Shown piece by piece: positions 19,740 through 19,848 of a DNA stretch of 64,000 bases. How positions within the stretch are numbered: position 1 is the first letter of the stretch; the number at the start of each line of letters is the position of its first letter. The DNA lies in the NCBI RefSeq assembly GCF_003334335.1, contig NZ_QOWQ01000023.1; one strand, written 5' to 3'. A program made the position numbers and the translations under genes. A model generated the notes under the pieces. It searched no databases. It saw nothing but the letters and a program-made list of their open reading frames with translations, and was not told where the DNA came from. The DNA comes from Escherichia coli (lineage in GTDB: Bacteria > Pseudomonadota > Gammaproteobacteria > Enterobacterales > Enterobacteriaceae).

Positions 19740-19747
19740 TCCGCCCC

Positions 19748-19763
19748 CTGGGTGTATATACAG
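19748..19763. promoter_or_regulatory. LexA box 1 in lexA promoter
   Basis: CTGGGTGTATATACAG (minus-strand sense CTGTATATACACCCAG). Confidence 0.85.
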
Positions 19764-19768
19764 TTATG

Positions 19769-19784
19769 CTGTGAGTATATACAG
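19769..19784. promoter_or_regulatory. LexA box 2 in lexA promoter
   Basis: CTGTGAGTATATACAG, perfect CTGT-N8-ACAG. Confidence 0.9.
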
Positions 19785-19848
19785 CAAAAGGCGATTTTGG
19801 AACCATAAACTGCACAATAAACCAGAGATTTATCGAATTCTGGAAGGG

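Follow-up and report, generated by a model that had tools for sequence, protein, structure and literature searches.

Two palindromes stand directly in front of lexA in a 64,000-nt stretch of Escherichia coli DNA (the window), and the question raised by this locus is whether they are operators through which LexA controls its own gene and, beyond it, the neighboring dinF. We conclude, with a probability of approximately 97%, that the locus is the E. coli K-12 lexA promoter, which LexA itself regulates through two operators; no evidence to the contrary was encountered. The promoter anatomy, the statistical significance and conservation of the operators, and the identity of the two proteins come from the present analysis; LexA binding and repression, and the co-transcription of dinF, are taken from the literature.

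Over 3.1 kb around the lexA promoter, the window and E. coli K-12 MG1655 agree at every position (100% identity). The promoter region is carried by all of the 5,426 complete E. coli genomes, and the 109-bp dgkA-lexA intergenic region, which is exactly the interval 19740-19848, is retained at ≥99% identity in 5,374 of the 5,426. In the RefSeq annotation of the matching record, dgkA (20217..19849), lexA (19131..19739; 202 aa, WP_000646078.1), and dinF (17733..19058; 441 aa, MATE family efflux transporter, WP_001326646.1) all lie on the minus strand, yjbJ is listed after dinF on the same strand, and plsB is divergent from these four genes on the plus strand. The arrangement described in an earlier note on this DNA, tandem LexA operators followed by lexA and a co-oriented dinF, therefore held, with the specification that both genes are on the minus strand. 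A single genome of the 5,426 has its lexA locus on a record labeled as a plasmid, not a chromosome, which is probably a matter of replicon labeling or assembly.

Both protein assignments were confirmed with family models. The lexA product matched TIGR00498 at 289.5 bits (cut-off, 110.95), with residues 1-199 aligned to positions 1-202 of the 203-position model, and it retains the A84-G85 cleavage site and the S119/K156 dyad in their expected contexts. The dinF product matched the equivalog NF007690 at 907 bits (cut-off, 409), residues 1-440 of the 441-aa form being aligned to positions 1-440 of the 441-position model.

We next examined the palindromes themselves. The upstream operator, which corresponds to "operator II" of Kozuch et al., occupies 19769..19784 on the minus strand (CTGTGAGTATATACAG as presented, CTGTATATACTCACAG on the lexA strand) and is a perfect CTGT-N8-ACAG, spanning approximately -18 to -3. 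The downstream operator, "operator I," occupies 19748..19763 on the minus strand (CTGGGTGTATATACAG as presented, CTGTATATACACCCAG on the lexA strand), spans approximately +4 to +19, and carries one mismatch (CCAG for ACAG), which affects the half-site position that is least critical. A spacer of 5 bp (19764-19768; CATAA on the lexA strand) separates the two, giving a centre-to-centre distance of 21 bp, and 8 nt remain between the boxes and the ATG of lexA. Read along the lexA strand, the order is TTCCAA-N17-TATACT, CTGTATATACTCACAG (19784..19769), CATAA, CTGTATATACACCCAG (19763..19748), GGGGCGGA, and ATG. By direct reading of the sequence, the coordinates and the 5-bp separation given for two 16-bp boxes upstream of lexA were exact; the description of both boxes as perfect or near-perfect divides into a perfect upstream box and a downstream box with one mismatch.

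The core promoter coincides with these operators. The -10 hexamer, TATACT (19774..19779, minus strand), is read directly from the sequence and lies wholly within the upstream operator. According to Lewis et al. 2021 (PMC9210283), two Dcm target cytosines are located at +17 and +45; these correspond to 19750 and 19722 in the window, and each yields 19766 as +1. The transcription start back-calculated in this way is at 19766..19767 on the minus strand, with an uncertainty of 1 nt, and the -10 hexamer ends 7-8 nt upstream of it. From its spacing and conservation, TTCCAA (19797..19802, minus strand), which matches TTGACA at three of six positions, is the likely -35 hexamer, 17 nt from the -10 hexamer. 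A scan for the sigma-70 consensus did not report the lexA promoter because it requires at least four of six matches in the hexamer; the promoter was thus assigned by spacing, conservation, and the published numbering. The purine-rich GGGGGCGG (19741..19748, minus strand), invariant in 34 enterobacterial promoters, is the putative Shine-Dalgarno region. Thus, the upstream operator contains the -10 hexamer, and the downstream operator covers +4 to +19. The CCAG that replaces ACAG in the downstream box also creates a Dcm site, CCAGG, at 19747-19751; this site is methylated in stationary phase, and lexA expression is unaffected (PMC9210283).

The function of these sites has been established by mutagenesis. 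Point mutations in the half-sites inactivate operator I and operator II, both of which repress, and conserved sequences to which RNA polymerase binds overlap with operator II (Kozuch et al. 2020, PMC7440846). In the same study, cooperativity between the two operators was not detectable, a single strengthened operator performed as the wild type did, and a proposed operator III farther upstream was non-functional (PMC7440846). In our matrix scan, a weak LexA-like site of 5.8 bits was observed at 19808-19827 (minus strand, CTCTGGTTTATTGTGCAGTT; approximately -61 to -42), which is probably this proposed operator III. A CTGGTTTTTTGTGCAG-like block at this site is partly conserved across genera and may have another role, e.g., as a T-rich UP-like element.

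Taken with the published work, the anatomy suggests the following scheme. Each 16-bp palindrome would be bound by one LexA dimer through its N-terminal winged-helix domains. Occupation of the perfect upstream operator, which covers the -10 hexamer, would exclude RNA polymerase, and occupation of the one-mismatch downstream operator over +4 to +19 would block initiation or promoter escape. Upon DNA damage, RecA-ssDNA filaments would induce self-cleavage of LexA at Ala84-Gly85 via Ser119/Lys156, the operators would be emptied, and lexA and the MATE transporter gene dinF would be transcribed. As the damage signal fades, newly made LexA would repress the promoter again, closing a loop of negative autoregulation. 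The transcripts reaching dinF would be only those that pass a hairpin and U-tract in the 72-nt gap between the two genes, and this hairpin may keep the expression of dinF below that of lexA.

We turned to the question of how far the control exerted at the lexA promoter extends downstream. The earlier note had placed lexA and dinF in the same operon. Their same-strand adjacency is kept in relatives, and their co-transcription is documented in the literature: as cited in PMC4481165 and PMC3327717, Krueger 1983 established the lexA-dinF operon and the dependence of dinF expression on the lexA promoter. Across 907 arrays, the expression of the two genes is correlated at 0.86, with dinF at a lower level and with a smaller dynamic range. 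During SOS induction, RNA polymerase occupancy measured by ChIP-chip rises across lexA-dinF (PMC3739934). No promoter-like site was found by scanning the 72-nt gap, and the matrix scan gave no well-scoring LexA box near dinF.

The gap is not featureless. The earlier note had seen no obvious terminator between lexA and dinF, and by sequence criteria this was incorrect. A terminator scan and RNA folding identified a terminator-like element at 19081..19120 on the minus strand, in which a hairpin (19120..19091) of 13 pairs, including 8 G-C pairs, with a 4-nt loop begins 11 nt past the lexA stop codon. The core of the stem is 10 bp long and GC-rich, and the tail that follows, UUUGUUUUUC, has 8 U in the next 9 nt. 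Its predicted folding energy of -24.1 kcal/mol corresponds to z = -3.8, and a fold as stable was obtained for 0 of 200 shuffled sequences. A terminator-like dyad after lexA was reportedly noted in the 1981 sequence papers. No discussion of a conserved lexA-dinF hairpin was found in the open-access papers that were searched.

Next, we investigated the conservation of this element. Among the matches listed in a cross-species search described below, a hairpin of -14 to -24 kcal/mol is present at the junction in 28 of 28 lexA-dinF genomes. It mostly starts 9-16 nt after the lexA stop codon, and the 28 genomes have 28 different stem sequences. The U-tract is less uniform: at least five T in the 8-nt tail were counted in 14 of the 28 species, and the other half have a poor U-tract. 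An alignment of junctions from mixed genera gave no predicted structure with RNAalifold, because hairpins of different genera are out of register; alignment within a clade was successful. In the Enterobacter/Leclercia group (five alignable sequences), 98% of stem cells were paired, compared with 26-46% in slid controls, and compensatory double changes were found at 4 of 10 stem pairs. Within E. coli, one substitution in the loop is the only variation in the element. In several Citrobacter species (six loci), GC-rich palindromic, REP-like inserts (GCCGGATAAG... / ...CCGGGC) expand the lexA-dinF gap to 121-175 nt and take the place of the simple hairpin.

Published 3' ends were then consulted. 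The thresholded Term-seq lists of Adams et al. 2021, which derive from uninduced cultures, contain no 3' end near U00096.3 4257769, and two of these lists contain no lexA-strand 3' end between U00096.3 4257185 and 4259238. An RNA 3' end is listed 70 nt into the lexA open reading frame, at U00096.3 4257185 (~19669 in the window), and a Rho-dependent read-through site ~200 nt into dinF, at U00096.3 4257949 (~18905 in the window), with a 6.1-fold change with bicyclomycin (entries in the lists of Adams et al. 2021). The Rho-dependent site could alone account for the lower expression of dinF. Neither lexA nor dinF is mentioned in the TERMITe and SMRT-Cappable-seq supplements.

Tentatively, and somewhat short of an even chance, we read the junction hairpin as a leaky terminator or a 3'-stabilizing hairpin within a real operon, a role that we infer. 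If the hairpin attenuates read-through, it would explain both the lower level and the narrower range of dinF expression relative to lexA. It resembles leaky intrinsic terminators within other operons in having a GC-rich hairpin and U-tract between co-oriented, co-regulated genes, the downstream of which is expressed at the lower level; it differs from them in that the Term-seq lists consulted carry no 3' end at the lexA-dinF hairpin and that the U-tract is poor in half of its relatives. A more specific version of this reading, which is rather doubtful, takes the hairpin, 9-16 nt past the lexA stop codon and with a position conserved among Enterobacteriaceae, to be a leaky terminator sensitive to translation. 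On completing lexA, a ribosome would sit over the 5' arm of the stem, and read-through into dinF would then depend on how closely translation of lexA follows RNA polymerase. Such read-through would set the ratio of LexA to DinF, perhaps together with the Rho site, and the 459-aa form of DinF given in older annotations, discussed next, would be a mis-call.

The length of the gap itself depends on the start codon assigned to dinF. The earlier note had dinF 18 bp downstream of lexA, and this holds for the longest open reading frame alone, which begins at an in-frame ATG (19110..19112, minus strand) located in the 5' arm of the hairpin and encodes a 459-aa DinF. The RefSeq start is at 19058, 72 nt past the lexA stop codon, in every genome inspected, and 72 nt is the gap that the evidence supports. 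Databases are inconsistent on this point, with the protein annotated as 459 aa or 441 aa. If the longer form were correct, the junction hairpin would be mere 5' coding sequence of a DinF starting 18 nt after lexA, in a tight operon with no internal signal. We consider this improbable. A coding role would be suited by an open, in-frame path from the ATG at 19112 into dinF, by the invariance of the junction and of this ATG in four divergent E. coli strains, by the 19-bp gap quoted in PMC4481165, and by the lack of a Term-seq entry for a 3' end at the hairpin. However, among the matches listed, an in-frame upstream ATG is absent in 24 of 27 other lexA-dinF species and stands at a different distance in the remaining 3. 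The counterpart of the 19112 ATG has lost its frame with dinF in E. albertii, and it is interrupted downstream by an in-frame TAA in L048, which represents a divergent Escherichia lineage. By contrast, a start codon equivalent to that at 19058 is found in 25 of the 27 other genomes (ATG; GTG in one), and the remaining two have theirs a few codons off. Both RefSeq and the NCBIfam model favor the 441-aa form, the NF007690 alignment beginning at its residue 1. Furthermore, other genera hold hairpins of unrelated sequence at the same position, and compensatory changes point to a selected RNA, not a peptide; the ATG is also buried in a stem of -24 kcal/mol. The ATG at 19112 is thus probably not the real start of dinF.

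At the other extreme, the hairpin could be an efficient terminator, with lexA essentially monocistronic, dinF served by a promoter of its own, and "operon" a misnomer. The canonical anatomy, with its 10-bp GC-rich core stem, 4-nt loop, and 8 U in 9 nt, is what such a terminator would have, and on arrays dinF is below lexA in both level and dynamic range. Against this stand the Term-seq lists, with no 3' end at the hairpin; the dependence of dinF on the lexA promoter (Krueger 1983, as cited), the 0.86 correlation, and the RNA polymerase occupancy over both genes; and the 72-nt gap devoid of a promoter-like site, with no good LexA box near dinF. We regard efficient termination as very improbable. 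Our tentative reading remains a hairpin acting within a real lexA-dinF operon; neither the hairpin nor the discrepancy in the DinF start amounts to a discovery, and both are minor loose ends.

When 15000-24000 was scanned against Rfam with a permissive E-value, the lexA promoter and the lexA-dinF junction gave no match. Sub-threshold matches to naRNA4/CssrE and ES036 were observed at 22817-22954, between plsB and ubiA, consistent with a REP cluster.

We then evaluated how far the two palindromes stand out from the rest of the window. A perfect CTGT-N8-ACAG occurs once in 64 kb, at the upstream box, against 0.77 expected; at least one perfect match occurred in 52 of 100 shuffles, so a single match is not improbable in itself. 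Sequences with one mismatch are likewise not enriched in the window (21 found, 17.8 expected). Since the bare pattern is too short to carry significance, we used a 20-bp LexA matrix built from 23 published SOS boxes of the standard compilations, from which both lexA boxes and the uvrA/ssb box were left out. This position-weight-matrix scan, which the earlier note had proposed as a check, bore out the assignment: among ~64,000 positions, the upstream box ranked first (19.5 bits) and the downstream box third (18.7 bits). Both scores fall inside the range of the training sites (12.8 to 27.5 bits), and with the full 20-bp matrix the sites stand 8 bits above the background, whose best site reaches 10.5 bits. 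The exact tail probability for a score of at least 18.7 bits is 2.8e-7 per position, which corresponds to a chance expectation of ~0.018 such sites and ~6e-8 such closely spaced pairs per 64 kb. Of 20 mononucleotide shuffles, one gave a score of 19.99 bits.

The second-ranking site (18.8 bits; 2880-2899, TACTGTATATTCATTCAGGT) has its expected place, in the interval from which ssb and uvrA diverge, and served as an internal positive control; it is the known SOS box shared by ssb and uvrA. The fourth-ranking site scored just 10.5 bits (34594-34613, at the start of xylE) and was rejected as a LexA site because ~1.5 such sites are expected by chance. The locus thus has value for calibration, in that the only sites recovered by the matrix in 64 kb are the lexA boxes and the uvrA/ssb box.

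To extend the comparison beyond E. coli, a plain-DNA scan for two boxes 1-12 nt apart was carried out with one genome per bacterial species, and it returned at least 129 matches. A LexA gene lies directly downstream in at least 71 of these tandem-box loci. Among the matches listed, the gap between the boxes is always 5 bp in enterobacterial and Pasteurellaceae loci and 3 or 4 bp in other Gammaproteobacteria. The matches listed include 34 distinct enterobacterial promoters, among which the stretch between the start of the first box and the ATG shows almost no variation. The loci were chosen by the two-box pattern, and hence only the positions that it leaves unconstrained are informative on conservation; the near-invariant positions of this kind include the box centres, the 5-bp spacer, and the ribosome-binding region. 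The -35 hexamer is also nearly invariant across the 34 promoters, and upstream of it the sequence varies freely. Of the 68 rows that could be evaluated among the matches listed, 29 have a DinF homologue starting no more than 600 nt downstream of lexA, all from Enterobacteriaceae; the 29 include the window and its MG1655 duplicate.

That both palindromes resemble a short AT-rich consensus by chance, given the AT-rich intergenic region around them, and are not LexA sites has a negligible probability: the unenriched CTGT-N8-ACAG counts and the single shuffle at 19.99 bits would accord with it, but the 8-bit separation and the ~6e-8 pairs expected, the location of the sites directly in front of lexA itself, the same arrangement before LexA in at least 71 loci of other species, and mutagenesis giving LexA-dependent repression (PMC7440846) all argue against it.

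The operators of lexA were among the first repressor-operator systems to be characterized and are a standard example of negative autoregulation. Brent and Ptashne in 1981 and Little et al. in 1981 are said to have described the lexA promoter with operators I and II. Given this textbook status, an intact copy in a K-12 window adds nothing new, and the operator finding is an already known, ordinary textbook case. In comparison with the E. coli K-12 lexA promoter of the published studies (PMC7440846, PMC9210283), the locus is the same and 100% identical, with the same operators, Dcm site, and overlap with the -10 hexamer, and nothing differs. Other promoters share the presence of more than one LexA box, namely recN with three boxes and the colicin genes with two overlapping boxes (PMC7440846); unlike the colicin boxes, those of lexA are separate, with a 5-bp gap and 21 bp from centre to centre. 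The lexA promoters of other Gammaproteobacteria such as Pseudomonas, Marinobacter, and Marinomonas have two CTGT-N8-ACAG boxes directly upstream, as here. They differ in a gap of 3-4 bp instead of 5 bp and in that genes other than dinF follow lexA; in loci of the Pseudomonas type, an open reading frame starts a few nucleotides after the lexA stop codon.

Two other groups of sequences were recovered by the tandem-box pattern. In ten loci from marine Gammaproteobacteria, mostly MAGs, the pattern was matched by arrays of an 18-bp direct repeat, CTGTTTATTCGCTCAGGG, and its variants, with at least six copies in one locus (L045); no LexA gene was detected next to the arrays in these ten loci. In 13 further loci, a conserved box pair with a 3-bp gap, CTGTTTATTTGCACAGTACCTGTTTATTCATACAG, was observed; the ORF filter found no LexA open reading frame directly downstream of these pairs, and the loci with record titles shown belong to the Oxalobacteraceae.
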